Origin: Cyanidioschyzon merolae
Taxonomy: Eukaryota
Reading direction: 5' to 3' (one strand)
Assembly (NCBI GenBank): GCA_000091205.1
Contig: AP006496.2
Length of the DNA: 64,000 bases
The position numbers were made by a program, and so were the translations under genes. Position 1 is the stretch's first letter. The number at the start of each line of letters is the position of its first letter. This document shows positions 1-57,192 of the stretch, one piece after another. Under the pieces are notes generated by a model. It was not told the DNA's origin, searched no databases, and saw only the letters and a program-made list of their open reading frames with translations.

Positions 1-1578
1 TGGCAGTGCAGAAGCAGCGTGTACCCGCTGTTGGGCAACCAACACAGCTCCTGGGCAGCTACAAGATCAGGCCAGATGCGCACCATCGCCCAGAGCGCCG
101 GATCGACCTCATCAGTCTCACCTCGGAGTCGTTCTTGATCGCTGCGGCTCAGCGAGTCAAGTAATCTCTCCACTGAGTAGAGACGGAAGAAGTGTTGCGC
201 AATCCGCAGATCCGAGACCACAACCGAAAGCGCCGCCAGGTCGGAGTCGGTCATGAGCATCCAGCCACCCAGCAATAGCCGCAGATGCTCGTCGAGTTCC
301 TCCGCGAGTCGCTCTCCCATGACGCTTTTCGGACTCGTGGAGGACTCCTGCTGGAGCAGGTCAACCCAATCGAGTACGGTCACGAGATGCTTTTGCATGA
401 ACGCAGGCGACGGGAGGAGCGCCTCCAGAACGCCACGAGCCAGGGAAGCGTTCCGCTCTTGCCCAGAGGTCGCAGGTGGAAGCGCTCGTTGCTCCTTCGC
501 CAGGTCACGGATTGCAGTATCGAGAAGATTTGATGCAGTAATGAACAAATTCAAAGCGATGAAAGAGGGATCGCCCAGGGTCTGCGGTACTTTCAGATGC
601 TCCGCAGCGCCACTGGATGCATCGGTTACCAGCCTCGACGATTTCTCTGGGCTCGTCATCCGTTCCTCTTGCGGTGCGCGTGCGGCTTTTCGGGCAGCAC
701 CAACCAAGTCATGCAAGCGCTCGCAGATGTATGCCTGCAGCGTCGGAAGCAGTTCGCCGCGCCTCTGCAGGCAGGCAAGCAAGTGCTTTGTCTCTGGGTG
801 CTCGCCATCACAGAGAAAAGTGACTGTCGAGAGCAGCTCTGCGAATACAGCTTCTGGCAATGCGGGCTGTTGCACAGTTACCCCAGCGGACGGCAATGAT
901 ATCGCGTTGAGGCGCTGTGAGCGCTGCGCCCGACACTCGTGGACAATGAGTTCCAGCAAGTCAACGCGGTCGAGACACGGTGATACTTGAAAGCAGACCG
1001 CATCTGTTGTCAAGTCGATCTTCAGCAGTGAGGCATAGAGCGTGAAGTCATTGAGCGCGAACAACTCCACTAGTTTTTTTGCAGCTTCTTGCCAGTCCGA
1101 GCGCTGCAGCAGCACCTCGTCGAGGCTTTGGGTATTCGGTGCGAGCACGGGGACGCTTTCAGCGTTAGGGCCAGGAGAGCGCCTCTGGGACAAAAGTTCA
1201 GCTGCAAAACAAGGACGTGTCGGTTGCTGTGGCGAACTCGACACCGAGCCCGTACACTCTGGAGCGTGACCATTGGTTACCGAAACCGTGCCGTTTTTGC
1301 ACCCTAGGGTTTCAGTCTTTTTCCGTTCGTCCGCGATAGCTGTGGGAAACTCCTGGGAACCACAGCGCAAGTGAACGTTACGAAGCGGATAACTTGCTTC
1401 TTTCCCAAAAAGCCGCAGCTTAATCCAGATCTCACCGTCACGTTCTCGAATGGATTGGACGGTGCCGCTCTCCCAGAGTCCTTCTGCGGTGCGTACCTCG
1501 ACGCAGCGACCTCGCTTCAGCCAAACTGGAAGCGCTACGGCAGCGTCAGTCGGGGTTGACGTTTTGCGCCCCAGCATC
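1..1578 (-). CDS. 3'-truncated gene (continues beyond window start); protein with N-terminal Tudor/chromo-barrel-like domain, >=525 aa in window
   Basis: I translated the reverse complement of 1-1578 by hand and spot-checked six segments against the plus strand. One frame is open from ATG (complement of 1576-1578, with an in-frame TAG just upstream at 1629-1631) all the way to position 1. The N-terminus is MLGRKTSTPTDAAVALPVWLKRGRCVEVRTAEGLWESGTVQSIRERDGEIWIKLRLFGKEASYPLRNVHL, a Tudor-knot-like pattern, followed by a long helical-looking region. It is absent from the ORF track, presumably because there is no stop codon inside the window. The three open plus-strand frames at 253-990 are its antisense. 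Confidence 0.5.
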
Positions 1579-2960: not shown

Positions 2961-4548
2961 TTCCTACCAACCGAACGTGGCGAAACTGGGGCTTGATCGC
3001 TGCGATCAAGCCTCAGTTTCTGCTGCTCTGCAAGGATGAAAAAATAGCTTGAACGTTGCGGTCGTCTACAAAGTGCCAAGTTGCTTCCTGCAGGCACAGC
3101 ATCTAAAACTTTGCATAGAGTACTGACCAGCGCGCTGAACCCGGCAAATGTTCCTGCAGCAGCGCTCCGCGCGGAATCGATACACAGCCGCACGCCATTC
3201 GCCTGCTACTGCGCCTAACCTTCGACCAGAGCAGTGTGTCTATTGTTCGCATGCGAATCACTGCTCGCAGACGGAGAACCTGGTGCAGCATCCCGACTGG
3301 AATCGACGGTCGGACTGCGCGGTGCTGAACCTGCGGGTACAATTTTGTCCGTACATACAGTCCATGGACAAAGCGCGTGTCGTGGAGCGTGCGAGCGCCT
3401 TGACGCCGTCGCGCGCTGGCGAATCAACGTATCCGTTCGTAGGGCTCGGTTGGCCCAGTTCGAGAGTGTTCACTACACGAGGCGAATCGCAGTCTCGGAC
3501 CAGTCGCTGCGTTCGCCAACGCTCGGCCTGGGAATCCGCAGCGACACTGCGACGCCATGCTGTCGCTGGAACGGAGGATCGTGTGGGCGGACCACTATCC
3601 CCGAATCAATGCTTGGATAACGGTAAAGAGGACTGGGAGGATTTGGTGCGCCATGTAGGCTTGCTTCCCGGATGCCGATAACCATCACATCATTGGGGAT
3701 CAGAGGTTAGATTCCAAAATCCTACACCATTAGGAATCACACTCGCGGTCCTGAGCACTTGGTAACCATCCGACACTCGGGGATTCCTCGTTAGATTCAA
3801 CAATGCTCTACCATGACGTCTTCCTATTGCTGGGTTCCGCCTGCGTTCGCCCGGGCGCCTCGCCGTGCTCCAGATGATCGATCATGGCGGAGCGTGCCAG
3901 CTGGAATCATCGCGAGGTATCGTGCCAGGCCCCAATATTACCTTGTGTGTCAAAGGCGGCACCGCGACGCGCACCAGCGACAGAGCCTGCAGCAAGAGAT
4001 TACTCTACGTGAGCTTCCGAGCTACGACACCTGATTTTCGCTGCAGTGCGATGCGAACACGCACGTGCGAGTGCGGGGTGTCGGACACGTGTCCTTCATC
4101 GATCGGTGAGGCGTCTCGCGCGGTGCACGCAGTGCGCTAAGTGAGCGTTCCTGGGAGATCAGGCAGGCATAAGACACGACGCGCGTGCCGCCGCTGAAGG
4201 GAAACGCGATCCTGATCTCTGGTGTGTTGTTCAGCTGTAAAAGTTGTATTCGCGCTGGAGTCGAACAAAAATATAGTTTTCAGTTCGTTTTTGTTTCAAA
4301 CTTCAAACAAGTCTAGTCAAATGTTTTTTCGCAGTATATAACAGAAGGGTTTAAAGAGCGTTCAAGAAATATAAAAATAAAAAAACGGAAAAAGGAACGC
4401 TATGAAAAAGCAAATGCACGATCCTGGAGGCCCAGGTTCGCCGGCTGCCAGAAAAAAATAGTGCCGAGTCCAGAAGAAAAGGAAGAGAAGAAGGACCGAA
4501 AGGCGGAGGTCCTACGTCGAAGGCGGCAAGAAAGACGACTGTACGACG

Positions 4549-5263
4549 AGATGGTGGTGAAAACCTTTCTTCTTGGACATATCAAGGATCCGTACAGGGA
4601 AAAGTTGCGAGACGCTATCGAAAAACGTGTTGCGTCATACTCCAAGAATATTATAAAGGCGTCGTCAGGACTGATGCATTTAGCAAGGGAGATGTACGAA
4701 GACGTCGCGAACATGGAAACGGTCGAGATTCCAGACGAGTTTTTCGACAAACCTTTATTCGTCAGCTGATGCTTGGCACAGGGGAAGTGCGGAGGGAAAA
4801 TGAGCGGGTGCGCGCCCTCCACGAAAAATATCCCTTTTACAGCTTCAATGGTACTCGATACAAGGGTGACCGGGGTATTTACGGCTACGGGGCGATGAAG
4901 TACCCCACGAACCTGAAGAACCATTTGACAGAGAACTTCGAACGTTTCATGGTACGCGCCGTGTTTGCGCTGTATCCGGACATCTCTCGCAATGGAAAAT
5001 GGGCGATGATCAACGGCATCACGAGCGATCGCAAGCATGAAGATGAGGTCGAATTTGTCGACAAGAAAGCGCCAAACGAGAACACGAATGAAGCTTCTGT
5101 AATCCGTGCGGTTATACAAGAGCATCGTGCGGTACTGGGGCTGGCGTATCCAACAGACAAGATATCAGCGTTGAAAAAGATAAGGAAAGATACTATCGCC
5201 TCATCCTGCGATATTTCGTGTTTCTGGACCGAGAGCTCGAACGCAAGGCAGAAACGAAGCTAA
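4549..5263 (+). CDS. Element ORF1 (about 240 aa if read from the first ATG across the frameshift; also the ORF-track pieces 4461..4769 and 4769..5263); K/R/E-rich NLS-like N-terminus; function unknown; frameshifted in copy A
   Basis: It is conserved with copy B: ...IKASSGLMHL..., ...GDRGIYGYGAMKYPTNLKN..., ...RNGKWAMINGITSDRKHED.... In copy B the region is a single frame. Copy A has lost one nucleotide near 4752 (A: aaacctttattcg; B: aagaccttttttcgc), which gives the TGA at 4767 and the frame switch. The first in-frame ATG is 4549 (MVVKTFLLG). The tracker start at 4461 is a GTG. Confidence 0.3.
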
Positions 5264-6618
5264 GTGAAGGAAAAAATGAAGAGTGGGAGAGACGGAAGGC
5301 TGCCCTAATGGGGAAGCGCTTCGATGTGGTTCCAGTGTGCAAGATCAAGTCACATTTTGTGACTATCGACTCCGGCGTCCTCTACGGCATCATGAGGGAC
5401 ATCAGTCCGGAGTTCAGTGTCAGCAGGGAGAACTTCACCGGCGAAAACCGGGAGACGTACTTGAAGAACATCTCCAATTTCAAACGTCTGAGAGTGAACA
5501 AGCAAAAGTTGTTCACTGGGATGATCGAAACCGATGGAGTAGCCTTGTGTGTACACTATCGGCGGTTGAAGAAAGATCGGCCAGTTCCGCCCTCGGCTGC
5601 GCCCGTGACGAAGGGTGCAGAAAAGAAAGAGGCGGATCCTGAGACGCAGGAGGTGGAGGATAACGACTTTGTCGTTGAAGTGACGAAGGATGAAGATGAG
5701 AAGGAGGCGGATCCTGCGACACAGAAGGTGCAAGATAACGACCTTGTCGTTGATGCGGCGAAGGATGAAGATGAGAAGGAGGCGGATCCTGAGACGCAGG
5801 AGGTGGAGGATAACGACTTTGTCGTTTGCGCGGACCCTGGGAACACGAATATCATCACCATCGCAGCACCGAAGCGTGCGGAAGATGGTACTGATGGTAA
5901 CGTACGTCAGAAAGACATGCGAGTTTTGAGGATCTCGAGAGCGAGATACTATCGAGAATCGGGAATAATGAATGCGAGGAAGAAAATTGCTACATGGAAT
6001 GCAGGAATGAAGGATCACCTGGAAGCTTTGAGTGAGGTGACTAGCCGAAGAGCGGACTTTCAAGCTTTTCGGAAATTCATGGAAGTTTGCATTGTCCATT
6101 GGGATGCACTGTGGGAGGAGTATACCAAGGCCCGGTGGGCTCGTTTGCGTATGAATTTGTATTGTGGGAAGCAGCGGGGGTTCGCGAATTTATTCAATAA
6201 CTTGAGCGCCTTGAAGGAGGATGAAAATCAGAGGCTCGTCGTAGCATACGGAGCAGGGCGCTGGAAGACCCAAAAAGGGACTACTCCAGCTCCAACGACA
6301 AGAACATACAGGGAGTGCGCACGGCGTTTCGTTACGATACCTGTAGATGAGTTCCGAACGTCCTATGCACACCATGAACTGGGTTGTACACTTCAGAGAG
6401 TCGAGATGGAAAAGTGCCAGAGGAGCGCTGAGGAAATAGCAAAGTACGGACCGCTGACGGAGGCGCAAACGGAAAGGAGTGCGAAAGTTCGTGGACTACT
6501 CGCTTTAGTGAGTATAACTCCGGACGGGAAGAAACGTATGGAGTTTGTGAACCGAGATTTTAATGCCGCAATCAATCTACGGAAATGTGCGGTACTGGAC
6601 AAGAGACCTCCAGAGTAG
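5218..6618 (+). CDS. TnpB-like RuvC nuclease of a eukaryotic OMEGA (Fanzor-type) system, 466 aa
   Basis: Motifs in order along the protein: [15 protein letters not shown] (RuvC-I, Asp ~205); [20 protein letters not shown]...EKC (TS motif plus a degenerate H/C zinc knuckle); [18 protein letters not shown] (RuvC-III, the RDxNAAxNI hallmark of TnpB, Cas12 and Fanzor). The canonical RuvC-II Glu is not obvious; the expected position reads RLVVAYGAG. The start codon is uncertain: the tracker uses a GTG, and the frame stays open further upstream. Confidence 0.7.
5619..5830 (+). repeat. 75-bp (25-aa) acidic tandem repeat x~2.8 inside ORF2
   Basis: The unit gaggcggatcct...gatgaagatgagaag recurs at 5619, 5694 and 5769, encoding [25 protein letters not shown]. 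Copy B has a single unit. Confidence 0.85.
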
Positions 6619-6843
6619 ACAAGAGAGAACTTTATTGGACAACCTCTCAAAGTCGAACTATATGAGAAAATGTTGGAAGCAGTAGTGGGTGGCCGGTCCA
6701 AAAAGACGGGCAGGCGTCTGCACATCAGTCAGAGACGATTTGTCTAAGGCGCGTTCGCCGCCATTACTGTACGCCGCCGACGTCGTTCGACTCTCGAAAG
6801 GCGTTTAGTCGTGGCGACAAGTCTGCAGTTCCAGTTGCAAGCA

Positions 6844-14409: not shown

Positions 14410-14568
14410 AAACCAACACTAGCAACCGCAGCGACAAACGCTTCCCCTAAAAGATGCTCTCGTTTTGGGAAACGCTCAGTGCTTGCCCGTGCGCAGGGCA
14501 AGCATTTATCTCGCGAACAGAGAAAGGAATAGCAAGCTGTCCCAGCACGCGCAGAGCAAGAGACTTGA

Positions 14569-15217
14569 GAGCACTGCGATGCAGCACTCTGGAAGATTCC
14601 ATGCGACATGTACTCGTGCACGCATCCGCGGGTGCACGCATTCTAGGACACGTGTATGTATGTGCATAGGCCTGCATGCACTTGATCCGTGCATCAAGAG
14701 CACTGCGATGCAGCACTCTGGAAGATTCCATGCGACATGTACTCGTGCACGCATCCGCAGGTGCACGCATTCTAGGACACGTGTATGTATGTGCATAGGC
14801 CTGCATGCACTTGATCCGTGCATCAAGAGCACTGCGATGCAGCACTCTGGAAGATTCCATGCGACATGTACTCGTGCACGCATCCGCGGGTGCACGCATT
14901 CTAGGACACGTGTATGTATGTGCATAGGCCTGCATGCACTTGATCCGTGCATCAAGAGCACTGCGATGCAGCACTCTGGAAGATTCCATGCGACATGTAC
15001 TCGTGCACGCATCCGCGGGTGCACGCATTCTAGGACACGTGTATGTATGTGCATAGGCCTGCATGCACTTGATCCGTGCATCAAGAGCACTGCGATGCAG
15101 CACTCTGGAAGATTCCATGCGACATGTACTCGTGCACGCATCCGCAGGTGCACGCATTCTAGGACACGTGTATGTATGTGCATAGGCCTGCATGCACTTG
15201 ATCCGTGCATCAAGAGC
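14569..15217 (+). repeat. 129-bp minisatellite x5
   Basis: The unit gagcactgcgatgcagcactctggaagattccatgcgacatgtactcgtgcacgcatccgc(g/a)ggtgcacgcattctaggacacgtgtatgtatgtgcataggcctgcatgcacttgatccgtgcatcaa starts at 14569, 14698, 14827, 14956 and 15085, and the array ends at ~15217. Its length is a multiple of 3 (43 codons). That explains the long overlapping ORFs 14447..15430, 14465..15391 and 14506..15213, which are not genes. Confidence 0.9.
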
Positions 15218-17601: not shown

Positions 17602-19299
17602 AGGTCGCTCTGTATTGCTAAAATAGCCGTCCGGAGATTGTGAACCCAATGCGCTTGCACGGGAATTCAGGCCGTGTACTGGAGGACAGTGCGTGGCATC
17701 GCTTGCAAGAGTACATTGCCTCGGCTAGGGCGTCGCTAGCGCCTTGCTGGTGCATGGTACGCACGATCGGTGCAAGTGACGTACATCGGCCGACAGCAAC
17801 GTAGCCCTGAAAGTGCAGTAGTTCGCGCGTCCTGCATATAGAGCGCTAGTCGGGAACCTCTCCTGTTATCGTATCTGGGTAGCGGATCGCTCCATACGCG
17901 TGTTCGTGGAAAGCACCTCTTCGAGATTCAGCGCTTCTTTCTGACAAAGGAGATGAGTCCGTTGCTTGCAATGGATGCCCAATGCTCTATGCGAAAAATT
18001 TGCAGGGATTTGCGTATGCGCGCGCTGGCGACCCATGTCCAGCACACTCCTATGCAAGACGACTTGCGTTCGTGTTTCAGACTAGTCCTGTATCAGGTAC
18101 AAAGGAGCAGCAGCGACAGCACTGCAACGTACTTGCCTCAGCGAACGGTTGTGGTCAGCGCAGAGCCTCAGTAACGACGCAACGAGTAACGATGACGCTA
18201 GTTTCTCGCGGTGGTGATTCGTTTGCTTCAGTACGGGCATACCGTAGCGAGCGGTTCAGTCGTAGTATCTGGTGATCTTCTCGCCAAGGCCCGAACAACT
18301 TCAGTCAAAGCACGTTGACTGTAATCTCTCTGAGCAGCTGCGCTTGCGGCATTCCTCGCGTCCATGGTAGTCTCTCAGTGCGTGCAACGCTTCTGGATTG
18401 CCTGCAACCGATATAACGTAGACGCTCGCGTCCTATCACCCGCCATGACCCAGACGTCTTCATACAAACGGAATCCTATCCTCATCATTGCGCTGCTTGT
18501 GCGGTTCCCGAACGCGGGGTCGTGTATTTTCCAAGTGCTGTTTCCGATGCCACGCTTTGCATGAGCTTGAGTGCCGACGCATTACTGTGTTGCTTCTTCC
18601 TGTCCCGTTAAGCATCGCTCGGGTGAATGCGAGCAGGTGGCTTTTGACCGACGCGTGTGCATATATGCGACGTTTCATGGTATAACGCGGGTCCGTCAGG
18701 TGCGCTGCCTATGCGTCAGCGCGCGTGACAAGTCAGCGCGTACCCGATAGACGATCCAGCTTCACCTGTGCGACATAAAAATGGAACACTGAACTGCTCG
18801 CTCTGTTCAAGCACCTTGATCATTTTTCCGAACTTGCTAAGATATGCGTACGCGGGATGCAAAGCCCAGCAATAGGGGCTTAGGAATGCATACGTAGTTT
18901 CCGGATTCTCGATCAGGGTTTCAAAGTTGAGTCTTCGACGCTTTGCCTTTGGCATTCGATGCGTCATCAGAATGATGATGATTCTCGAAGCACGTGAACA
19001 GGGCTTTGTAAAGTAATCGACATTATTGTCCACTGCATACGTACAAGTATTCAATCTTCTCATGCCCTGATGTGGAACATGCGCAAATCACGATTGCTTC
19101 GAGTTTTCGATTTTTCTGGTTCGAGGCAAGTCGTGGGCGCAGCCATGCGTATCGTTGCATTGACGACGAAAGAAGAAACGTGATGTTGTCCCGTAATGAC
19201 TTGTTCATACGCTCATGTCGAAATTTCATGAAACATGTCACTTCATTCGATGATAGACTTTGTTAGAAATACGAATACTCTAGTCTCTGTGGTCATCGA

Positions 19300-19870
19300 C
19301 GAAACTGCATTCGATACCTGCACAATACTTCTCATGGGATATGCTCCCAGAGGCTCCTATGTCTTCAGAGTGCGCCGAAAATCCGCTTGGGATCGGACTT
19401 ATCCTAGTGACCGCTTCCAGTCGAGAGGGCGTCACCGGTTTGCACGAAGAAAGCCCAGACGGTTCGCCAACCCTCGACTTGATCTCTAGCCCGGATTTTC
19501 ATTCTGGTACATGTTTCACTGTCGATAAAATCTGGTTCCGTCAATGCCTTATGGAATGGGAAAGCACGGGCTCGCGCGTGCGACGGACAGGGTACTCCTC
19601 CGGGGGATCACGCAGACGACGACTATATTCGCAGTACATTGCATCGGGTGCTTCGAGCGAGCAGGGCAAAGATGGAAGACGTCTGTGCCCGTCGAGTGCA
19701 GGTACCGAGCCGTGAAGCAAGTATTGGCGTACCATAGGCCGGACCTTGCAGGAGTCATTGTGATGAACATACGTGAAAACCTGACAACAATCAAGTGTCA
19801 CCTGAACAAGAGGCACACCGAGCTGTTTACAACGACAATGAGCATCGCAAGTGAGGTGTAGATCGAAACG
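19300..19870 (+). repeat. R1 dispersed repeat copy
   Basis: It aligns to the 2.35-2.96 kb copy along its full length (for example cgaaactgcattcgatacc; gacttgatctctagcccggattttc; ccttatggaatgggaaagc; aagtgtcacctgaacaag). It accounts for ORFs 19341..19715 and 19544..19861. Confidence 0.5.
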
Positions 19871-20589
19871 GCCCCCGCAATGCATAGAGTGATTTGATAA
19901 CAGATAGAATCAGGGGAATCGGGTCTTCAATGCCGTCATCGACATCCTTTGACTGCTGGCAACGGAGCTGGAGGCAAATGCAGAGACCGATGTATTCAAG
20001 GCGGAAGCGAAGCGCGACGAGAAGGAAGCATTCACGGAACCAGCCCACTTACGTTGGTATCGATGATACTGGGAGGAGGTCAGAGCTTTGGGGTGAACGC
20101 CCGAGTCAGACGACCCTTTCCATGTTACCCTACCATGGACTCAGGAAAACCTTCCAGTGACACGAATTCGAGGCAGGATCCCATTTCACGGATACTGTGT
20201 TCGCGAAGCAACGACGTACCGATTCGGGTCACATTCGAGTTTCTGCAAAGCCGAGAAAACGGCACCGATTGTATATAGGGTAACTAGAGATGCCATTGGT
20301 AGGTGCAGGCGTGCTCCAGAATCCAGGACACCAACGCTGGAGATAGATCACCATCTGGGCCTCCGATAAACCCGGCCGTAGGCCACAAAATTTTACCTTC
20401 CTCCAATTGTTCGCAATTCAGCTGCGTCTCGAAAGCGAGCACACATTGCATACAAACCTGCAATACTTGAACGGCGATATTGTATTCGCATCGCGAAGCG
20501 CGCGAGCACCAAGTCACTCGTTTCTGGCTGCGTACGTGTTTGTGTGCAGGTCTTCGGGGCACCAACCGAGCACGTACAAGCATTATACC

Positions 20590-22149
20590 CTAGCAGCATT
20601 CTGCAGCATCAATCGCTGCACTCGTACTCCCAGAAGTGACCGTTTCATCGCCTCGCTCACACAACGAGCATCTGGGCTGCTGCTGCTGCTGCTGCGGCGG
20701 CGGCGGCGGCGGCGGCGGCGAGCTCTTTGCGAACAGAATCGACATCATCCCTTTCCGCTTCCAATAAAGAATCCCCATCATCAAAAATCCAGCACCGAGG
20801 ACCAGCGAGACGGCAACGACGACAAACCACGGCCAGGAGGGAGCCGTTTCCTCATAGGCTGGAATCGCAATGTTCATTCCGAAAAAATCCGCCGGAATCA
20901 GCATTATCAGGATCGTACAGAACCACAGATGACAGCTGATGTTCACTGTCCATAGCCGAGTCTGTTTCGCTGCGAGCGCAATCACTGTCAGTTCTTCAAT
21001 GTTGTGCAGCTGCTTCCGCAAGGCAGCTGCAGACATTTCATGATCATGGCACTGCCATAGCGCCCATTCAATCAGCGTGTAGACGCTCTCTTGAGTCGAG
21101 GCAAATGATGCCCGCATCCCAGCGTCATCGCCGGGGATGCACTCTCCGACCCAGGCTGCGACGGTTTCCGCAATACCGTCGTCGAGGCTCTCCTCCAGGC
21201 AGACACGGAGGTTCCGGGCTCGCAGCGCTACGAGTGCCACTTGTCGTGCTGCGCCTTGTAAAAGCCGCGGAGCCGCGGACTTTTCCACGGTATTGATGTG
21301 CAGTTGGCCGTGCTGCAGCTGCTGTTTGATCCACTGCAGCTTGCGCTCATTCGACTGAACGCAGGTATGGAGCATCGCTGCAAGGGCACGAAATCCAAAC
21401 GCCTCTCCTGGATCTGTTTCTGGCCCCGTGAGCCGACCAGACACCATTCGATGCAGGATGCGAGCATGCTCGCAGTCGAAATCCTGTATCAGCAGGCGTT
21501 CGGGTTCCAGAACAGCGCAGAGATGACGATGAAGCGCTGCGATGATCATACGGGGTCGAACTCGAATGGTCGGCTGCATCTGGTACACCGGCATGAAAAG
21601 TCGACGATCCACCGAATGGATGAAGATGTTTCGAATCTCTGCGCCTGATGCGCTCGAGTTTGAGTGGGGTATCCGCGTCGTCGTCCTCTTCGTCTTTGCC
21701 GTCGCTGAAGCTATACAGCATTCGTCATTGCGACATGGATCTTTTGAGCTGTACGCTGAGCACGAAAGCGTTTCGTAATGTTCGCGCGCGCCTTGCTTGC
21801 TTTCGACTCGACCGGCTCGAGGAACGCGATGCTCCGCGAACATACACAGACCGGCGCACGGCTGCGTCTCGCAGTAACATGTTCGCGACCAGATGACCTG
21901 TCCCTGATAGCCCGACGCTCTGTATTCGTGAAATCGATAGTTGAGCACGAGCAGTGCCTCCTGGCCGACGGCAGAGAGCCCCGAAACTCCGCCAGGGAAA
22001 GCGCCGGCACTCGCGAGCGTCTCGACGGAGCTGGCGAGTCGACTCGCTGGATTCTGCGCTATGCTCCGCAGAGGCCCAGACTCGAGACCATCGAAGATCG
22101 TTTTCCGCGGCTTGTTCTCTGACGCTGCAGTGAACCGCCGCTGAGGCAT
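20590..22149 (-). CDS. CorA/MRS2-family Mg2+ transporter, 519 aa
   Basis: The C-terminal transmembrane hairpin carries the diagnostic FFGMNIAIP (GMN) motif followed by TM2 (WPWFVVVAVSLVLGAGFLMMGIL). The poly-Pro/poly-Gln tail is encoded by a (CGG)n(CTG)n microsatellite. Confidence 0.8.
   Translation of the reverse strand: MPQRRFTAASENKPRKTIFDGLESGPLRSIAQNPASRLASSVETLASAGAFPGGVSGLSAVGQEALLVLNYRFHEYRASGYQGQVIWSRTCYCETQPCAGLCMFAEHRVPRAGRVESKQGAREHYETLSCSAYSSKDPCRNDECCIASATAKTKRTTTRIPHSNSSASGAEIRNIFIHSVDRRLFMPVYQMQPTIRVRPRMIIAALHRHLCAVLEPERLLIQDFDCEHARILHRMVSGRLTGPETDPGEAFGFRALAAMLHTCVQSNERKLQWIKQQLQHGQLHINTVEKSAAPRLLQGAARQVALVALRARNLRVCLEESLDDGIAETVAAWVGECIPGDDAGMRASFASTQESVYTLIEWALWQCHDHEMSAAALRKQLHNIEELTVIALAAKQTRLWTVNISCHLWFCTILIMLIPADFFGMNIAIPAYEETAPSWPWFVVVAVSLVLGAGFLMMGILYWKRKGMMSILFAKSSPPPPPPPPQQQQQQPRCSLCERGDETVTSGSTSAAIDAAECC
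20678..20720 (+). repeat. (CTG)6(CGG)8 compound microsatellite inside the CorA CDS
   Basis: ctgctgctgctgctgctgcggcggcggcggcggcggcggcg. On the minus strand it encodes PPPPPPPPQQQQQQ. Confidence 0.9.
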
Positions 22150-22419: not shown

Positions 22420-23040
22420 CTCAGGTTCTTAGAGTCTTTCATTTGAATCGTGTTTCAATCCTCAAGTAAGTGTAATCAAGTGATTTTTCAGGGTTTGTAG
22501 CTGGAGCATTCAGAGTGTGTTCTTTTTAAAAAATAAACTTACGGGAATGGAAGTGAAGGATCCTGGAGGCCGTCATCGCCGGATGCCAGAGAAAAAGGAC
22601 GAAAATTTCGATCTTCTCGCCGACCATCGAGGGAGAAGTGCAAGTGACGAAGAAGAAGAAGAACAGGGTAGGTAGATGACAAAAGATGTTTGTCCGACAG
22701 GATGATGACGAGACTGTAGTCGAATAGAGGCCACGAGTTCTGGCAATCCTTGCGATGGTGAGTTCAACCAGAGGCAATGCACGCATGGAGATCGTGAACT
22801 TTGACTTTAACGCCACCATCAATACCAGACGATGTGTGGTGCTGAAGACGACTGCTGACGATATGAGGCCATCTATGTTTGTTGGGAAACCTCTCAGATG
22901 CGAAGTGTGCTAGGAGAAACTGAAAACGGCTGCAGGCGGCCAGTCAAAAAAGGCCGGGAGGCGTCTGAGAGGGAGTATATTTCTTTACACTCTATGGATC
23001 TACAGTTTTTTCGTTTCATTGAACACAAGGGTGCTTTTCC
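22420..23040 (+). mobile_element. Internally deleted (~0.6 kb) non-autonomous derivative of the Fanzor-family element, copy C
   Basis: Its 5' part (22444-22700) aligns to the leaders of A and B (ttgaatcgtgtttcaatcctcaagtaagtgtaatcaagtgattttt; ggatcctggaggcc...gccagagaaaaagg; gacgaagaagaagaagaac). Its 3' part (22780-22990) keeps a RuvC-III remnant, MEIVNFDFNATINT, and the conserved end block ggcggccagtcaaaaaaggccgggaggcgtctg. About 2 kb of internal sequence is missing. Confidence 0.55.
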
Positions 23041-24190
23041 TTTTGATGGACAGAACGCTCAACATGACCAGGGACGCTGTATTGCGGTATGGATTCGGGT
23101 AACCGGTAATGCATCTGTCGGTCCATACCCTTGGTTCAAGTTCTGGAAGCCACTCTTCGTACTTCCCCACGACGATACTGGTCATTCCGTACGTTCCATC
23201 GTGCGACGTTTCTCCTATGAGTTTTCGCAATAGTGCTTTTACAGTGCTGTTGCCAGCGCTGAATGTCCTCTGGCTGCCGGGGTGCTCGGATCACCGTCCA
23301 GGGTGTTGTCGGTCGCACCGCGATGCCACTTGGGGAGCCACTCGGCATGCGCTTGGCGCGCTTCTGTTGTCCCTGCTTCTAAGGTCTTCGGTGACCTCGG
23401 CATCCAACGAGCGCCTTGACTACACCACGCTCTAGTCGTCGGGATGTAACCTGAAGCAGCATCGTACGCGGAAGAGGTGAGGTTTACGTCCAGTGAACCG
23501 CGAGCATTTGCATATGCCCAGGGTGGGTGCCTCGACGCATCGACCCAGCGCCATCGACACGTGTGTGCTGTGTGTGTGTGTGTAGCACACGAGGATCTAA
23601 AGCGTTAAACGAATGCCGCAGTTCTTCGCTGAAGAAGCACCACATACGCGACGTATTAAGCATGAGGCTCCCATCGACACGGGTGCTTTTGCGTTACGGT
23701 GGCACCCAGCCCGGCATAGCGTTAGCGCAACGACACTGTCGCTCCGTTTCGAAAATACGTATGGTTTGTGGCAGTGGGTGGGCCCTGAAGATATGGTGCG
23801 GGAACCGCGGACGCTCTCCCGAAGGTCGATGACAACTGCGCAGTCGGGGATCCGCGGACTCGGGCAAACCTTCCGTCCATGAAGAGAAACAGGCGCAACG
23901 CCCAATCGGGCCGCATCGTGTCTCAACCGCAAGCTTCTGGTGCACTTCAGCTGCGCCCAGTTCGCATTTGCTGGGACTCGATAGGTGTTGGTATTCGACG
24001 GGTCGTACTGAGCAACGACATCGAGTCGCCATACAGGGCACTGCCAGCGTTTTCGTAGTTGCTGTCCCATTCAGGAGTTTATACGCGGCAAAACGCGCGC
24101 TTCGGACTCGGCACCGGCAAGTCGTCGCTACCACCGGGCGTCTTGCCGAGAAACTGGGCTTGGCATCGATTTCGCTGCAGTGAGTGGCCT

Positions 24191-27049: not shown

Positions 27050-27340
27050 GTTCGTGCACCGCAACCACTCTTTCGACGGGGTCACCCTGGAGAATCCCGT
27101 GATCGTGGAATACTGTACCATGTGCGAAACGAAGCATGGCATCGAGACGAGCCTTGTGTACCCATCAACCGCATGCACCGAGCGATGCAGCAAGCGTTCA
27201 GGCGTCATAGACCGGACCTCGGACGCCGAGAAGCGGTGAACATACCCGACAATCTGACCATAGTCAAGTGTCACCGAGGCAAAATGCGCACCGATCAGTC
27301 TACAAATAAGATAAGAATGGCAAGCGAAGCGCACATTCCA
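27050..27340 (+). repeat. Partial (3' half) R1 dispersed repeat copy
   Basis: It aligns to the 3' halves of the other copies (aatcccgtgatcg; gcatcgagacgagcc; caagcgttcaggcg; catagtcaagtgtcaccgaggc). It explains ORF 27122..27466. Confidence 0.4.
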
Positions 27341-27890
27341 ACGACCACCTATGCATACCCTGTGTTGACAACAGCCAGAATTAGGGAAATCGCGACTTTC
27401 ATGCTATCATCAGCATCTTTTTCTGCGTATAACAATGCTGGGGCCAAGGAGAAACCTGCGAAATGAAAGCCGGAGTTAAGACAAAGGACAAGGGAGCATT
27501 CGCAGAACTTGCCCACAAATGCTTGTGCTGGTTACACGTAGAAAAGACCCAAACTTTAGTGTATACCCCGAGTTAGCCAGGCATCCCTGTTTCGGTCTTG
27601 TCTGACATGGATGTAGTATTCTGGAGTATCTACGCTCTGAATCCGAGCAGAGCGTTGCAAACTGTCAAACGAAAAAAATGTCGCCGTGTCAGAGCGCAAC
27701 CCCTGCCGGGGCGCGTGTCTCGCAGAGAGGGCGGCGCGAGCGCACTGCTTCCATTGGCGTGGCGTTTTCTCTACCACGTGTCTGAGCGCTTGCACGCACT
27801 GCATCCACCCTGCACTTTGCTGCACTTGTAGTGCTCGTTTTTCTTCGAATTGCAATGCGCTTTCTTTGTCCAAATAAGCTCTCGTTGCAA

Positions 27891-30149: not shown

Positions 30150-30565
30150 TGATCTCAGACCGGAGAAGAATATCTTATCATCCAGGATCGAGCATTGAGT
30201 GCACTTTTGATTACACAAGGAGCAATCGTGTAGCATTCACGGATTACATACCGCAATGCGTCTCCTTGCATATATCGTTCATCGGTAGAAGAATATCTTA
30301 TCATCCAGGATCGATCATTGAGTGCACTTTTGATTACACAAGGAGCAATCGTGTAGCATTCACGGATCACATATCGCAATGCGTCTCCTTGCATACATCG
30401 TTCATCGGTAGAAGAATATCTTATGATCCAGGATCGATCATTGAGTGCACTTTTGATTACACAAGGAGCAATCGTGTAGCATTCACGGATCACATACCGC
30501 AATGCGTCTCCTTGCATACATCGTTCATCGGTAGAAGAATATCTTATCATCCAGGATCGAGCATT
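30150..30565 (+). repeat. 123-bp minisatellite x~3.3
   Basis: The unit gaagaatatcttatcatccaggatcgagcattgagtgcacttttgattacacaaggagcaatcgtgtagcattcacggat(t/c)acataccgcaatgcgtctccttgcata(t/c)atcgttcatcggta starts at 30165, 30288, 30411 and 30534. Its length is a multiple of 3, which explains ORFs 30134..30688 and 30155..30550. Confidence 0.9.
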
Positions 30566-41689: not shown

Positions 41690-42671
41690 TCTTCCTGCCG
41701 GCCAAAGTGTGTGTGTGCGCTAGTGCCTGCAACGCTCCTGGTACGCCTCGGGGGAGTATAACGGAGAATTGCTCGCGGGCTGGTGACCCGGGCGACGCGA
41801 TCTCCGGGAGGGGCTTGAGGCGGCGCGCGCCATTGCGCAGCGTCACGCTTTCGTCTGTTGACTGGTGTTAACGAGAAACGTCCAATAATTGTATTTAAAT
41901 GTATTAAATGATACAAAAATGAAATAGAAGCGTCAGCCTCATCTGGATGTGCTCGGAGCACGGAGACGGCTGCGACGATTTTTACGGTTTGACAGATCGC
42001 TCACATTGACCATGGATCGCAGAATGCGGAGTTGATGGATATTGGCTTTCAGGAAAGCGTCCATCATGCCGCTGCACCCTATCTTCAGTTTCCATTATTC
42101 ACGCTTCCTTTCGGCTGTACTGCTCGTCTAGTACGTTCTATCGTGCGCTGAGTTCCTGCTTTGAGCAGCCGCCGTAGCGCCTGTACCACTTGAGCGAATG
42201 CATCACGGAGACAGAACGGCTTTTTCCGTACCACTGAGGGCGTTGGCTCGAGGCGAGCATCATCCGGCACGGGGTCGGTGTATATCATCATTGTGGAAGC
42301 CTGCAAACTGCGCAGACAGACCAAGAGCTTGCGGTAATGGGAAGCGATATGCAAGGAGACCATCGCGACCAGAGCGACGCCCAGACGGTGCCTACCCGCT
42401 CCTCGTCCCAGCGTAGACTGCATTGGGGACGAGTCGCTCAGATCTCACTAAAGCACGTGCAAATGGGGCGAGCATCAAGCACGAGCGTGGGAGACTCGTC
42501 TCGCGTGCGGGACCTTCCGCACAGGCGGCAACCTTTCGACAATACGGGAAGATTTTCCCTCTTTTCATGTTTATCGTTGAGGGGGAATGAAATCGTTACA
42601 TCTTTGCTATTTAATGATTAGTCTCTTTTCTTTTTTCCGTATTGTGCGGTCGATACGCGCATCTCCATATC

Positions 42672-45160
42672 TGGCAGGCATGAGACACGACGTGCATCTC
42701 GCTGTTGAGGGGAAACGAGATCCTGACCTTTAGTGTGCAGCTCTAACCTACAAGTTGTATTATGGTTGAAGTCATAGCAGAGTATGCTCTCTCGATTCAA
42801 TCGTGTTTCAGCCCTCAAGCAAGTACATTCAAGTGATTTTCCACGATTTATAGCGGACGCATTCGAAATAGGATCTTTTTCAAAAATAAAAAAGAAAAGT
42901 AATCGAAATGGAAGTAGAGGATCCCGGAGGCGCGGTGTCACCTGCTGGTGGAAAAAAACGAAAAACAGAGTCAAACGTAGAGGAACAAGACATGACGAAG
43001 AAGCAGAAGAAGAAGGCCCGACGCCAAAGGCTGCGAGAAAGATGACAATACTACGAGATTGTTGTAAAAGCCTGTCTTCTTGGATAAATCAAGGATCTGT
43101 ACAAGCAAAAGTTACGAGAGGCCATCAGAAACTGTGTAGATTCGTACTCCATGAGTGGTATAAAGGCTTCGTCAGGGCTAATGCATTTGGTGAAGGAGCT
43201 GTATCGGGACCTGATGGAAATCAAAAGACGCGTGGTTCCGGAAGGTTTATTCAACAAGACCTTTTTTCGCCACCTGATTGTTGGCACAGGGGCAGCGTCG
43301 AGAAGAGATGAGGGAATGCACGCCCTCTACGAAAAATTCGCCGAATTCCGCTTCGACGGTACTCGATACATGGGTGATGCGGATATTTACGGATGCGGGG
43401 CAATGAAGTACCTCACGAATCTGAAGAACAATATGCTCAGTATCCTCGAACGTTTCATGTTACGTTCTATCTTTGCGCTGTACCCGGGCCTGTCTCGCAA
43501 TGGGATATGGGGCATCATCGAAAGTATCACGAACAATCGCCAGCATGAAGATAGGATCCAATCCGTCGACGACAAGACATCACGCAGGAGCAGGAATGAA
43601 GCTTCTGTATTGCGTACGGCTATACAGGAGCATCGTGCGGTACGGGGACTGGCGAATCCTGCAGAAAAGGTAACGGAAATGAAAAAAGATGTTATCACCT
43701 CATCCTAAGCTATTTCGTGCTTCTGGACCGAGAACTCGAACGCAAGGCAGAGATGGAGCTGGGCGTGAGAAAAAATGAAGAGTCGTTGGAACGGAAGGCT
43801 TTCCTGATGTGGAAGCGCTTCAACGTGGTTCCGTTGTGCAACATCAAGTCACATTTTGTGACTATCGACTCCGGAGTCGTTCATGGCATCGTAAGGGAGA
43901 TCAGTCCGGAGTTCGATGTAAGCAAGATAGAGTTCACCGATGAAACGCGGGAGACGTACTGGAAGAATATCTTCGATTTCAAACGTCTCAAAGTGAGCAA
44001 GCAAAAGCAGTTCACTGGGATGATCGAAACCGATGGAGAAGCCATCTGCGTACATCATCGGCGCTTGAAAGCAGATCGTCCAGTTCCGTCCTCGGCTTCG
44101 CCCTCGGCGAAGCATGAAGAAAAGAAGGTGGCGGATCCTGCGACACAGAAAGTGCAGGACAACGACTTTGTCGTTGGCGCGGCCCCCGGGAACTTGAATA
44201 TCACAACCATTGAAGCACCCAAGTGTGCGGAACATGGTGACGACGGCAACTGACGTCAGAAGGACATGCGTCTTGTAAAGTTCTCAAGGGCGAGGTATCG
44301 CCTAGAATCGTGAATAATGAATGCAAGGAAGAAATTTGGGACTTGGAATGCAGGAGTGAAGGAGCGCCTGGAAGCTATGAGCGCGGTGACGAACCGCGGA
44401 GCGGGCTTTGACTATTTTCGGGAATTCATGGAAGTTCGCATTGCTCATTGGGATGCGCTGTGAGGGGAGTACACCAAGTCACGATTAGCTCGTAAGTGTA
44501 TGAGACTGTACTGTGGGAAGCAGCTTCGCGTCGCGAACTTCTTCAATGAATTGAGCGCCCTCAAAGAGGATGAAAGGCGGAGGCTTGTAACAGCATACGG
44601 AGCAGGACGCTAGGCTTCCAAAAAAGGAGCATACCTGTTCCATCGACAAGAGTGTACAAGGAGTGCACACATCGTTTTCTCACGATACGGGTAGATGAGT
44701 TCTGAGCGTCGTATACACACTTCGAGCTGGGGTGTATACTCCAGAGGGTCGAGATGGAAAAGTGCCAGCGGAGCTCTAAGGATGTAAAAAAGTACGGAGC
44801 GCTGAAAGAACAGGAAATGGAACGGAGGGCACAGGTTCGAGAACTCCTTGCACTGGTGGGTACAACCAACGGGGGCAAGAAACGCATGGAGTTCGAGAAC
44901 GGTGACTTGTTCTCGCCGCAATCAATAGAACGAGATATGCGGTCCCGGAGAAGAGACCCGACGCGCTAACACGATCTAAAATTCGCAGGGCAGCCGTGCA
45001 GTGTCGAGGTGTACAACGAGAAACTGAAACCAGTAGCAGAGGGCCGGTCCAAAAAGACTGGAGGCGTCTGCACGTCAGTTGGAGATGTATTGTCTATGGC
45101 GGTCACTCGCCACTAATGTGCACCGGTTATGCAGCGTTTGATGATTGAACGGCATGCCTG
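42672..45160 (+). mobile_element. Fanzor-family element, copy B (degraded)
   Basis: It is collinear with copy A from ctggcaggcatgagacacgacg (about 4165 in copy A) through the conserved 3' block at 45031-45080. It has an AT-rich leader. Coding capacity is disrupted; see the pseudogene feature. Confidence 0.65.
43717..44969 (+). pseudogene. TnpB-like ORF2 of copy B, inactivated
   Basis: The RuvC-I Asp is replaced ([14 protein letters not shown] against [14 protein letters not shown] in A). There is a stop after ...CAEHGDDGN at 44253, and further frame breaks. The RuvC-III region has degenerated to MEFENGDLFSPQSIERD. The ORF1 homologue upstream also carries TGA and TAA stops (43043, 43085) and a TAA at 43706. 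Confidence 0.65.
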
Positions 45161-48412: not shown

Positions 48413-48900
48413 TTGCTGAAAGGCGTCAAGGCCTTCGCCCTACCGTTAGATCACGAGGGCGGAGCCAAATACCTGAACCGTAACCAGATGACGCCGCTCA
48501 GCTCTTCATGGACTTGGTATCATCGAGAGTCGGGCTTGATGGACCCCAGGAAGCACATCGCCAACTGGAATGACGACGACACGGCCTACCTTGATGCTCT
48601 GGGCACCATGCCATGCAGGCGCGGACACTTTGAACGCCTCGTCTGGAGAATACGTGAGAGCGCGCCTGGGCCGCCAACAGTTTCGGTTACAAGGATTCGC
48701 GACGTTTGCATTCGTCAACGTCTCTAATGACTTGGAAAAAGAAATGACCCACTGGTTGTGTCATTTGCTCGTAGCCAATCGCGCTGGACGTGCTGTAGCG
48801 CGCAAAGGCTGCACTCCTGGGGCCCCCGCCAGCACCCGAATCGAGTGCTGGAATCTCTTCTGTACGATTCGCATCGATGCGCTCTAGATGACGTACACGT
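48413..48900 (+). pseudogene. Divergent TnpB/Fanzor-like relic, copy D
   Basis: ORF 48413..48727 contains WYHRESGLMDPRKHIANWNDDDTAYLDAL. The counterparts are [28 protein letters not shown] in copy A and RARYRLES*IMNARKKFGTWNAGVKERLEAM in copy B. The ~130 aa that follow in A are collapsed here, and no RuvC-III motif is recognisable. Confidence 0.3.
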
Positions 48901-49565
48901 TTCAAGATTCGAGGAAGACGCTGAAGCAGGCTGAGCAGGAAAGCTTCAAACAGAGCTGAATGCACGAGATGGTGTCCTTGAAGACGAACAGACGTCAAAT
49001 GAGGATACAATAGAATAAGACAGGCCTGCACGGGGGTGTGTGCGAGCACCACCAACGATGCGCGCAAGCATTTTATGCACCAAGTCTTCAGCGCCTCAAT
49101 CAACATCCGAAAATATCTCGTGCTTCTGGAGCGTTCACACGCTTTAATTCAAGCAAGCCTTGGACGGAAGCGTTGAGTACTCTGAGTAGACGTTATGCGG
49201 AAACGCTGAAAACTTGTTATGAAAAAACCAGTCGCCAGTACAGTGGCAGTTGGATGCGCACCCGAAGCAAGGCACTGGTACAGTCCGCTTCGACAAGCCA
49301 GAGGCGCTGGACCGCCGCATGCATATACCTGGAATTTGATTCCTGGTTCATCGATAGACGATTATGGTGCTCCATGTTTCGATGTGACTTAGAAGCGGAC
49401 CGGTTCAACGCATGAGTGCCAAAATCGCAGCAGTATACACCAGAATGCACTAGGATATAGCGGCAAGAAAACAACAAGGATACAGGACCTTGTCAAGAGA
49501 TGGAGTGAACTATGGTCTTTTACATTTCGCCGTCGCGCTTTTTCTCGAAGAGTTTGTTTCATGGA

Positions 49566-51659: not shown

Positions 51660-52856
51660 GCACCCATATCAGACGAAACGGGAAGGCCTACAAACAGATG
51701 ACTCGAGCGTCCGTTCAAAAGTTCGGGTCTATTGCCAATGCCATCCAACATGGGCCTCCGCGTGCCTTTGAGCTGCCTGCTGTTTTCGCTCTCTCTTACC
51801 TTCGGATTTACATGCGCCTGTCGCTCATGAACCTCTCCCAGCTGCGATGTCAGCCGTCGACAGATGTCGACGGGAGCGTTCAAGTCCCGACTGCGCCGTT
51901 CCCGGCAGTTGTCGACGCATTTCGTGCACGAGCGGAAGTTGCAATGCACAACCCGTCTGCCGTTTTTCATCCTCTCTGTACTCGGACGCAGACTGCCCGT
52001 CACCACGATGACATTTGATCGCACTCAGGTGTTTTCGCAGGTTAAGAACACGTGCCTCTCTGAACGCCGCTCTGTGGCGCGTGAACGCTTGCCTCAGTGC
52101 TCGGTAGACGCCCTTGGCGGGTGCAGGAGGCTCCACTCGATGCACTCTTCCATATCCCCGCCCAGTGCCGTACATCTGAATCACGGGCTTGTTCTGGGCG
52201 GTGCCTTTGGTATCTACGTTGTTCGCTGTATGTGCACGCGCACGGTGCTCGCTCCAATAAAGGACTTGCGGGACGCCTTCTTGCCCATATGAAACAAGTG
52301 CCAGAGGGAAGTCCGGCCAGACGAAGAATTCGCGGCGGTGCGATTCGCCCACGCGCGCGTCTTGCACAGCGCTGACGCGTTCTCCAGTGGAGGCGCTCGC
52401 TGCGATAACTAGGGTCCGAGTCCAGTACACGGTGCTGTGTAGGCACAGGAGCCGCGATGCTCTGTGAGCGTACTCCCTGAGAGGCAACATGCTGCTGCTG
52501 AATGCCGCTGGGTCGATGGCCACGAACCAAAGAGCATCTGCCTTCGGAACCAGGTCAATGATCTCCGGCGACAAGCACAGTGAGCTTTAGGCATCGTGCT
52601 GTGAGCAAGATGTCGAAAGCAGACTTTGAGCGTTTCTCGGCGTCCATAAAGCAGCGCAGGCCTCTGCGCCAACGTGTTGCCTTGAAACAGAAATGCAGGA
52701 TAGCTGACGCATATGTGATTTGAGCATTCTGCACATAAGGAAAGGAGAAGTGTGCAGGCGTGAATGTAGGTATTGGATCATGGTATTGGTTTTGCTACAA
52801 ACCGCTGTCCCATGATGTCGCGAGTCGCCTAGAGTCCGGTGAGCCACCGAATACCA
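51660..52856 (-). repeat. Inverted-repeat arm 1 (~1.2 kb; contains an R1-family copy and a 249-aa ORF reading outward)
   Basis: Its reverse complement is ~99% identical to 55988-57192. The ORFs 51825..52574(-) and 56279..57028(+) are the same 249 aa apart from 3 substitutions. Boundaries were set where identity is lost: at ...ataccaa|t on the inner side and after ...SSDMG on the outer side. Confidence 0.85.
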
Positions 52857-55987: not shown

Positions 55988-57192
55988 CTCTGGCGCTGGT
56001 ATTCGGTGGCTCACCGGACTCTAGGCGACTCGCGACATCATGGGACAGCGGTTTGTAGCAAAACCAATACCATGATCCAATACCTACATTCACGCCTGCA
56101 CACTTCTCCTTTCCTTATGTGCAGAATGCTCAAATCACATATGCGTCAGCTATCCTGCATTTCTGTTTCAAGGCAACACGTTGGCGCAGAGGCCTGCGCT
56201 GCTTTATGGACGCCGAGAAACGCTCAAAGTCTGCTTTCGACATCTTGCTCACAGCACGATGCCTAAAGCTCACTGTGCTTGTCACCTGAGATCATTGACC
56301 TGGTTCCGAAGGCAGATGCTCTTTGGTTCGTGGCCATCGACCCAGCGGCATTCAACAGCAGCATGTCGCCTGTCAGGGAGTACGCTCACAGAGCATCGCG
56401 GCTCCTGTGCCTACACAGCACCGTGTACTGGACTCGGACCCTAGTTATCGCAGCGAGCGCCTCCACTGGAGAACGCGTCAGCGCTGTGCAAGACGCGCGC
56501 GTGGGCGAATCGCACCGCCGCGAATTCTTCGTCTGGCCGGACTTCCCTCTGGCACTTGTTTCATATGGGCAAGAAGGCGTCCCGCAAGTCCTTTATTGGA
56601 GCGAGCACCGTGCGCGTGCACATACAGCGAACAACGTAGATACCAAAGGCACCGCCCAGAACAAGCCCGTGATTCAGATGTACGGCACTGGGCGGGGATA
56701 TGGAAGAGTGCATCGAGTGGAGCCTCCTGCACCCGCCAAGGGCGTCTACCGAGCACTGAGGCAAGCGTTCACGCGCCACAGAGCGGCGTTCAGAGAGGCA
56801 CGTGTTCTTAACCTGCGAAAACACCTGAGTGCGATCAAATGTCATCGTGGTGACGGGCAGTCTGCGTCCGAGTACAGAGAGGATGAAAAACGGCAGACGG
56901 GTTGTGCATTGCAACTTCCGCTCGTGCACGAAATGCGTCGACAACTGCCGGGAACGGCGCAGTCGGGACTTGAACGCTCCCGTCGACATCTGTCGACGGC
57001 TGACATCGCAGCTGGGAGAGGTTCATGAGCGACAGGCGCATGTAAATCCGAAGGTAAGAGAGAGCGAAAACAGCAGGCAGCTCAAAGGCACGCGGAGGCC
57101 CATGTTGGAAGGCATTGGCAATAGACCCGAACTTTTGAACGGACGCTCGAGTCATCTGTTTGTAGGCCTTCCCGTTTCGTCTGATATGGGTG
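55988..57192 (+). repeat. Inverted-repeat arm 2
   Basis: See arm 1. Its outer end lies 44 bp from an in-frame ATG (57236) upstream of the SHMT conserved start. Confidence 0.85.

Follow-up and report, generated by a model that had tools for sequence, protein, structure and literature searches.

A 0.6-kb, internally deleted Fanzor1 copy in Cyanidioschyzon merolae is probably a fossil of a short, non-coding CMe-1A subfamily

Fanzor1 proteins are eukaryotic TnpB-like RNA-guided nucleases. To our knowledge, how elements that carry only this nuclease move is not known, and the family CMe-1A has been unclassified since 2013. We analyzed a stretch of 64,000 nucleotides of Cyanidioschyzon merolae DNA (the window) in which two long copies of such an element, A and B, are accompanied by a much shorter copy, C, that has lost the body of the nuclease gene. 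The locus raises a simple question: is C the remains of a full-length copy that was deleted on the spot, or is it one member of a family that spread in its short form, and if so, what could have moved elements that encode nothing?

Copy C occupies 22430..23027 on the plus strand (~598 bp), as placed by BLAST to B and by the short-family HMM, with boundaries set by alignment with independent short copies. The element of ~0.6 kb that a first-pass annotation had put at 22420-23040 is therefore real and its coordinates nearly right. BLAST aligned C with B in two parts, 22435-22570 with B 42788-42931 (72%, E 1e-17) and 22727-22967 with B 44825-45070 (68%, E 1e-16), and the short-family HMM covered C end to end (22444-23032, E 8e-152). 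Reading along the plus strand, C begins with a left-end motif (TAGAGTCTTTCATTTGAATCGTGTTTCAATC, 22430..22460), the same ~30-nt motif that is found at the boundaries of independent copies. It is followed by a 5' untranslated leader (22461..22548, aligned with A, B, L002, and L019) and by the ATG with an N-terminal coding remnant of ~58 codons (22549..22721, from the alignment and the ORF list), so that the left boundary lies ~115 nt 5' of the ATG. Within this remnant sits an insertion that is specific to the short family (TTTCGATCTTCTCGCCGA, ~22606-22623, plus strand, by alignment). A C-terminal coding remnant follows the deletion junction (22722..22883, by tblastn and alignments) and includes what is left of RuvC-III (MEIVNFDFNATIN, 22785-22823, plus strand, aligned to A). 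Next comes the conserved 3' block (22884..22967), which runs from GGGAAACCTCTCAG through a GGCC-AGTCAAAAAA-GGCC hairpin to GGGAGGCGTCTG and was delimited by alignment A2 and the short-family consensus fold. The copy closes with a 60-nt right-end tail of the short type (22968..23027, by alignments).

The junction itself falls at ~22721/22722, where ~1.9 kb of nuclease body, equivalent to about A 4566-6470, is gone. Reading this deletion as a spliced intron was rejected, since its boundaries are not GT-AG in the alignment. By tblastn, only part of the uninterrupted homologue P0002 was matched in C (residues 693-752, at C 22710-22886). The reading frame of C is broken at 22673, and its longest ORFs are 52 aa. 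Only the last motif of the RuvC D/E/D set is left (NFDFNATIN), and thus C encodes no nuclease. BLAST, the HMM, and the alignments all bear out the architecture that had been proposed from the letters alone, with the leader and the ORF1 start kept on one side, the RuvC-III remnant and the 3' block kept on the other, and the nuclease body lost. The stronger wording, that exactly the two termini are preserved, is right or wrong depending on the reference. Compared with A and B, in which the left-end motif is preceded by a conserved block of ~135 bp (L1) and by upstream modules, C lacks both, and its final ~60 nt are unlike the A/B tail. Measured against its own subfamily, C has both ends, with the left-end motif on one side and a right end of the short type on the other. 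The neighboring ORF (20590-22149) clusters at 90% with CYME_CMN319C from C. merolae 10D, and a (GT)n microsatellite lies at 23565-23585, in the same intergenic region as C.

The long copies supply the background against which C has to be read. Copy A (3904..6806, plus strand) has a core at 4138-6806 and shared upstream sequence from 3904; it carries frameshifts at ~4769 and ~5218-5263 and a premature TAG at 6616. Copy B (41997..45154, plus strand) is the long copy nearest to C within the window. All on the plus strand, it comprises an upstream module (~41997-42648), block L1 (42649-42784), and an internal left-end motif (42785-42813); its core extends over 42649-45154, with frameshifted Fanzor ORFs and a right end at ~45154. 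The two are 74% identical by self-comparison of the window, and B is the more degraded. We also found copy D, a highly degenerate remnant of a long copy's 3' half (48425..49128, plus strand, by tblastn, nhmmer, and translation), which is absent from the first-pass list of copies A to C. It resembles P0002 residues ~490-677 at 31-35% identity (tblastn), gives an nhmmer match at 49047-49128, and retains a RuvC-III remnant (FMHQVFSASINIRKYLVLLER). About 170 close homologues of the long copies are present in hot-spring metagenomes. Intact long copies are rare (1 of ~45), the uninterrupted homologue being P0002 with 752 aa.

Assignment of these ORFs to Fanzor1 required a deep profile. Pfam gave no match for the ORFs of A and B, phmmer and a shallow profile gave none against the PDB, and AlphaFold2 run on a 9-sequence alignment reached a pLDDT of 33. 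Only the deeper profile A3, made of P0002 and 32 relatives, succeeded, with matches to the solved structures of Fanzor1 from Parasitella parasitica (9CF0, E 2.8e-18) and Guillardia theta (9CER, E 1e-4); the diverse relatives came from an exhaustive search with 1337 representatives. The Cas12f/TnpB zinc-ribbon model PF07282 matched two relatives weakly. The published Fanzor1 motif, D-X(125,275)-[TS][TS]-X-X-[zinc finger]-X(5,50)-RD, corresponds to the RuvC D/E/D residues (Bao & Jurka 2013, PMC3627910). The A ORF and alignment A1 satisfy this motif (ADPGNTN ...C ... NRDFNAAIN), with zinc-finger ligands that are atypical in the CMe-1A ORF (HH..C..C). CMe-1A was described in C. merolae as ~150 copies of ~3 kb with ~80% identity to their consensus, mostly degraded and few intact ORFs, no terminal inverted repeats (TIRs), undetermined target-site duplications (TSDs), and no assigned class (PMC3627910). 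The long copies in the window fit this description and are the published Fanzor1 family CMe-1A.

Two stretches of the Fanzor ORF deserve mention in their own right. Just upstream of RuvC-I, the A ORF contains a 75-bp tandem repeat (window 5605-5826) of three copies, 86-93% identical, that encode acidic units. The number of units ranges from 1 to 5 across the homologues in alignment A1, which implies that this linker expands and contracts. The stop of the Fanzor ORF is not fixed (window 6616-6745; homologues P0002, P0003, P0005, P0006, and P0009). It is TAG after RPPE in A and TAA after NFxG in P0002 and P0005; other homologues read through to a conserved GTC-TAG/TAA at ~A 6745, and the interval is conserved with codon periodicity.

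The window and the loci hold other repeated sequence as well. An inverted duplication of 1.2 kb at 99.5% identity (51661-52856 / 55997-57192) has a 249-aa ORF in each arm, the arms flanking ~3.1 kb. Tandem arrays lie inside long ORFs at 14568-15217 (period ~129 bp, about 5 copies, 99%) and at 30164-30565 (period ~123 bp, about 3 copies, 97%). Old dispersed repeat pairs of 65-67% identity, unrelated to the Fanzor core, are found at 2328-2683 / 19266-19616, 18768-19142 / 55819-56189, and 19684-20048 / 27157-27516. Among the loci, L026 encodes a 339-aa ORF (516-1535, plus strand) with a CPCCG...ET..H....CP.W motif, present as three copies of ~72% identity. The zinc-binding tail of a non-LTR reverse transcriptase typically has a motif of this kind.

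For a view beyond the window, we used 80 metagenome loci from a protein-alignment scan (about 1.0 Mb, partly redundant between samples), which are 97-99% identical to the window where they are orthologous to it. Pairing of left and right arms split the copies into two classes, with a gap of 3-30 bp in the short class and 1736-2126 bp in the long class. Twelve non-redundant short copies, including C, were counted, two of which sit in L082 beside a 941-bp identical sequence. By the HMM, nine of the twelve span the junction and three have an additional internal deletion; these three share the right-hand breakpoint of that junction, and some share little beyond it and the tail. C alone lies within the window; the others come from close relatives sampled as metagenome contigs. 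Short copies (about 12) and long copies (about 10) are roughly equal in abundance in the unbiased portion of the sample, which comprises the flanks and the window.

The nine complete copies align through one and the same junction (...GACGAGACTGTAGTG|GCACAGAGGGCACGAGTT...). All of them carry the insertion (TCTTCTCGCCGA and neighbors), which is present in no long copy, including L046, and the downstream flanks of the short copies are unrelated to each other. A shared junction and a shared insertion at unrelated sites imply that the family multiplied from a single deletion derivative, which arose in a B-like subfamily. Right-arm identity is 0.68 between short copies versus 0.59 between short and long ones. 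Ten diagnostic positions in the right arm separate the short copies from most long copies, with the short-type state at 7 of 10 in B and 9 of 10 in L010. Taken together, these alignments show that C is not a one-off deletion; it belongs to a family that spread as short elements.

What are the ends of such an element? The left-end motif bounds C exactly (22430), as it does the short copies L026s and L053s, which lack the module that we call X. In most short copies, this non-coding module of ~0.9 kb separates the left-end motif from the leader. The motif, which reads (TA)TAGTCTTTCAACTCAATTTTGTTTCATCC, is likewise the left boundary of X in 8-9 independent copies whose upstream flanks are unrelated. 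Module X is also found 5' of the long copy L046 and was never seen by itself in the sample (examples are L058 13450-14419, L030 2081-3049, L027 9201-10164, and L046 8894-9823). The two X modules of L082 (6776-7716 and 10555-11495) are 100% identical over 941 bp and their adjoining short elements differ; the pair may be a very recent duplication or an assembly artifact. Elsewhere in the window, the motif occurs only within the leaders of the long copies, in B and, in a more diverged form, in A, against a chance expectation of 0.05. There it is internal, behind the conserved 135-bp block, as it is internal in most long copies. We considered an absent left end in C, since similarity between A and B reaches 120-135 bp further; that view was dropped given the motif at the boundaries of the X-type copies. 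The shared boundaries support the motif as a candidate terminus of the C lineage. The left-end motif and the short-type tail are also found among long copies, in L046 and L010, and no long copy encodes a transposase.

Right ends are sharp, and the downstream flanks of long copies share nothing. Long copies end in ...CACTACTGTACAC..GGCG..CGTTYGACTTTCGAAAGGCGTTT, and compensatory changes are seen in their terminal hairpin. The short family, together with the long copy L010, ends in ...GTGAAACG-TTTT-CGTTTCAC-TGATCACA, and here the hairpin arms covary (GTGAAACG/CGTTTCAC, TTGAAAC/GTTTCAA, and CGAAAG/CTTTCG). This subterminal hairpin of the sister copies is degenerate in C. At the other side, each long copy has one of three upstream modules, which are shared to nested extents. 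Two of the modules (G2 and G3) also occur solo, and a modular 5' part found alone in this way resembles TE-N2_CMe, a 635-bp element that corresponds to the 5' end of CMe-1A (Bao & Jurka 2013, PMC3627910). The solo modules are probably TE-N2_CMe. The upstream module of Group I holds a 3'-terminal fragment (the right-end tail) of another Fanzor element (L009 922-1004; L081 1589-1796), 760-850 bp 5' of the element core, which suggests head-to-tail or nested arrangements that were later copied as a unit.

By eye, there is no inverted similarity between the aligned ends, only a direct GTTTCA-containing word. For the seven copies in which both ends are defined, the longest word shared by a copy's own flanks averages 3.43, versus 3.40 for mismatched pairs, so the target-site duplications for which a search had been proposed are not found around the copies. 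Copies start with TCTTTCA and end in ..TCACA. The 5' flank is mostly G-final, not A or TTTT, and shows only a weak T-A-N-R-G tendency, which may belong to the element. No left-end (5') hairpin was seen. The left-end GTTTCA and the 5' arm of the hairpin at the right end are complementary, but the left-end word sits ~20 nt in from the terminus, not 0-2 nt. MITEs are defined by TIRs and TSDs. The C family resembles them in that its members are short and non-coding, occur in multiple copies, and derive by deletion from a longer element; it differs from them in lacking TIRs (by eye) and TSDs (flank-word test), and thus the classic MITE picture does not apply. Of the earlier proposal of a non-autonomous element mobilized in trans, the multiplied short non-coding family stands, with 12 copies in unrelated flanks.

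The first-pass annotation had also called for a dedicated transposase acting on these ends. None turned up in the ~1 Mb around the 80 Fanzor loci, where the sole recurrent ORF is Fanzor with its antisense frame; an apparent second multi-copy ORF family proved to be that antisense frame. In the same ~1 Mb, no RepHel or other HUH gene and no TnpA was seen, and Helitron end signatures were not found on the short-family ends. The long copies are as non-autonomous as C. Among 82 loci at at least 88% identity, there was no presence/absence polymorphism. No empty site was seen at L083, a strain 99.3% identical to the window, and C is present there too.

The alignments show that a single ancestral element of the B-like long subfamily lost ~1.9 kb of its nuclease gene, from codon ~58 to just upstream of RuvC-III, gained the insertion of 12-18 nt, and went on to be copied into many unrelated places in the genome. 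The copies have kept the ~30-nt left-end motif, the leader with its ATG, what is left of RuvC-III, the 3' block, and the right end with its subterminal hairpin; in one sub-lineage, the additional ~0.9-kb module X follows the left-end motif and precedes the leader. Since the short copies encode nothing, the machinery that moved them must presumably have acted in trans. Such machinery would have recognized a fixed 3' end and, less strictly, a 5' end, and it would have left no inverted repeats or target duplications; mobilization may have been of a single-strand or rolling-circle kind (HUH-type, Helitron2-, IS91-, or IS200/605-like). Rolling-circle copying from the 3' end, as for the CRe elements of Chlamydomonas, appears to be the likeliest mechanism, and a cut-and-paste DDE transposase does not fit the copy pattern. 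Since then, the copies have decayed neutrally to about 65% pairwise identity. Here we infer mobility from the structure of the copies and mechanism from their negative features. On this basis, we believe with a probability of roughly 75% that C is a fossil of a short, non-coding CMe-1A subfamily that multiplied after one deletion and was moved in trans by rolling-circle-like machinery.

Known elements offer partial parallels to this proposed fossil subfamily. C comes from the same organism as CMe-1A, and it and its relatives have the same family features. The 2013 description covers a 5'-end element and no two-ended form in which leader and N-terminus are joined to RuvC-III and the 3' region (PMC3627910). 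The C group is that form. [quoted passage not shown] Their Helitron2 ends match those of an autonomous Helitron in the same genome, and they insert after TTTT, often with TSDs (PMC3627910). Fanzor guide RNA (fRNA) is encoded between the end of the ORF and the right end, and the fRNA of CrFNuc-1 has 20 extra copies in the Chlamydomonas genome (PMC10530073). The C family is like CRe-1/2/3 and CrFNuc-1 in that deletions spare the 3' end, the 3' region outnumbers the nuclease gene, and mobilization in trans is proposed. It differs from the CRe elements in that Helitron2 ends, an autonomous partner, a TTTT target, and TSDs were not found. With Helitron and Helitron2, the short family has in common a 3' subterminal hairpin, degenerate in C.

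PATEs are miniature derivatives of IS200/IS605, bacterial tnpB-carrying elements, and are moved by the Y1 HUH transposase TnpA. Elements of the IS200/IS605 type have hairpins at both ends and insert 3' of a fixed target of 4-5 nt. The C family is like the PATEs in having no TIRs, no TSDs, a subterminal hairpin, and a lost body with both ends kept, including the end that overlaps the guide RNA. PATEs are prokaryotic, however, and in the C family no left-end hairpin was seen; we know of no Y1 HUH TnpA in C. merolae. A bolder reading sees in the leader, the 3' guide-RNA region, and the right end of a Fanzor1 element a self-sufficient mobile unit of a eukaryote. Guide-only satellites would then have been copied or retained by RNA-guided homing, with Fanzor protein acting in trans, and/or by a 3'-anchored, HUH-like system of red algae that is as yet undescribed and works without TIRs or TSDs. 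We regard this reading as unlikely.

If the 3' region had a function of its own, the short elements could instead be guide-RNA genes under selection, with a promoter and leader fused to the Fanzor RNA scaffold and the guides serving Fanzor made elsewhere. The leader, the 3' block, and the right end that such a unit would need are all retained, stand-alone fRNA copies do occur in Chlamydomonas (PMC10530073), and one intact Fanzor ORF (P0002) survives in relatives. The 3' regions of 43 long copies also give a strong consensus fold (-41.8 kcal/mol, with few covarying pairs), including a long-range helix of 12-13 bp (CAGTAGTGG / CCACTACTG). This helix, however, is not retained in the short family. 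Single-sequence z scores of the 3' region against shuffles are -1.2 in A, -0.7 in B, and +0.65 in C, where the terminal hairpin is gone. Rfam yielded only a chance-level snoRNA hit. RNAalifold found no structure in a mixed alignment of long and short copies, because the long and short tails are not homologous column by column.

Up to ~A 6730, the 3' block of the long copies shows codon periodicity, in the Fanzor frame, of 0.87/0.91/0.84, versus 0.91/0.92/0.81 in the ORF. This periodicity, along with the read-through in some homologues, implies that most of the block once coded for the C-terminus, which argues against guide-RNA genes. Nor do the short copies diverge as such genes should. Their identity is 0.64 in the left arm, 0.675 in the RuvC remnant, 0.67 in the 3' block, and 0.54 in the tail; the 3' block is no better conserved than the remaining sequence, and decay is uniform but for a faster tail. 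Between the window and the L083 strain, C has 8 differences in 598 bp and the remainder of its intergenic region has 11 in 849 bp, so C changes between strains as fast as neighboring intergenic DNA. An RNA role for the 3' region of C is thus unsupported, and selected guide-RNA genes are a very unlikely reading of the short family. With its terminal hairpin lost, C is probably immobile and functionless. That an RNA scaffold travels with the ends, as first suggested, is true of the region itself, which does travel; in C, neither the conservation nor the fold of a scaffold goes with it.

Copies that have no TIRs and are fixed at the 3' end but variable or truncated at the 5' end could also be products of reverse transcription. 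The short copies would then be retrocopies of a transcript running from the left-end motif to the 3' hairpin, inserted by a resident non-LTR reverse transcriptase. The left boundary at ~115 nt upstream of the ATG would suit a transcript, and the zf-RVT-like ORF fragment in L026 would suit such an enzyme. Against this, the short-type right end has no poly(A) or simple-repeat tail and the copies have no TSDs. The alignments give the internal deletion no GT-AG boundaries, and the X-type copies place 0.9 kb between the motif and the leader. We consider retrocopying highly improbable.

Recombination among copies does occur, as implied by the shuffling of 5' modules between subfamilies (module X and the three upstream modules) and by the short-type tail on the long copy L010. 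Could segmental duplication, or ectopic recombination or gene conversion between Fanzor loci, then have spread the short copies in place of transposition? Outside the element, however, different short copies have dissimilar flanks, and independent copies have sharp, identical boundaries, which makes this quite implausible as the means of spread. Finally, that C arose once, by deletion within a full-length copy at this locus, and was never mobile as a short element is scarcely credible: it is the single short copy in 64 kb and is old and degenerate, but relatives hold 11 further non-redundant copies in unrelated flanks, a result that clears C of the purely local deletion held up as the first-pass annotation's own refutation, and the complete ones have C's junction and an insertion that is absent from long copies, L046 included.

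Transposon copies with internal deletions are routine, and C itself appears to be dead. As a short element that spread, C met an ordinary transposon fate and calls for no new mechanism. The genome of C. merolae is small, intron-poor, and genetically manipulable. Within it, the short CMe-1A subfamily to which we assign C delimits the minimal cis requirement for copying: a left-end motif of ~30 nt, ~300 bp of leader and N-terminal sequence, and ~300 bp of 3' sequence with its terminal hairpin. The nuclease gene was dispensable in cis for copying, and the short family may thereby narrow the search for the mobilizing enzyme and for the guide-RNA region.
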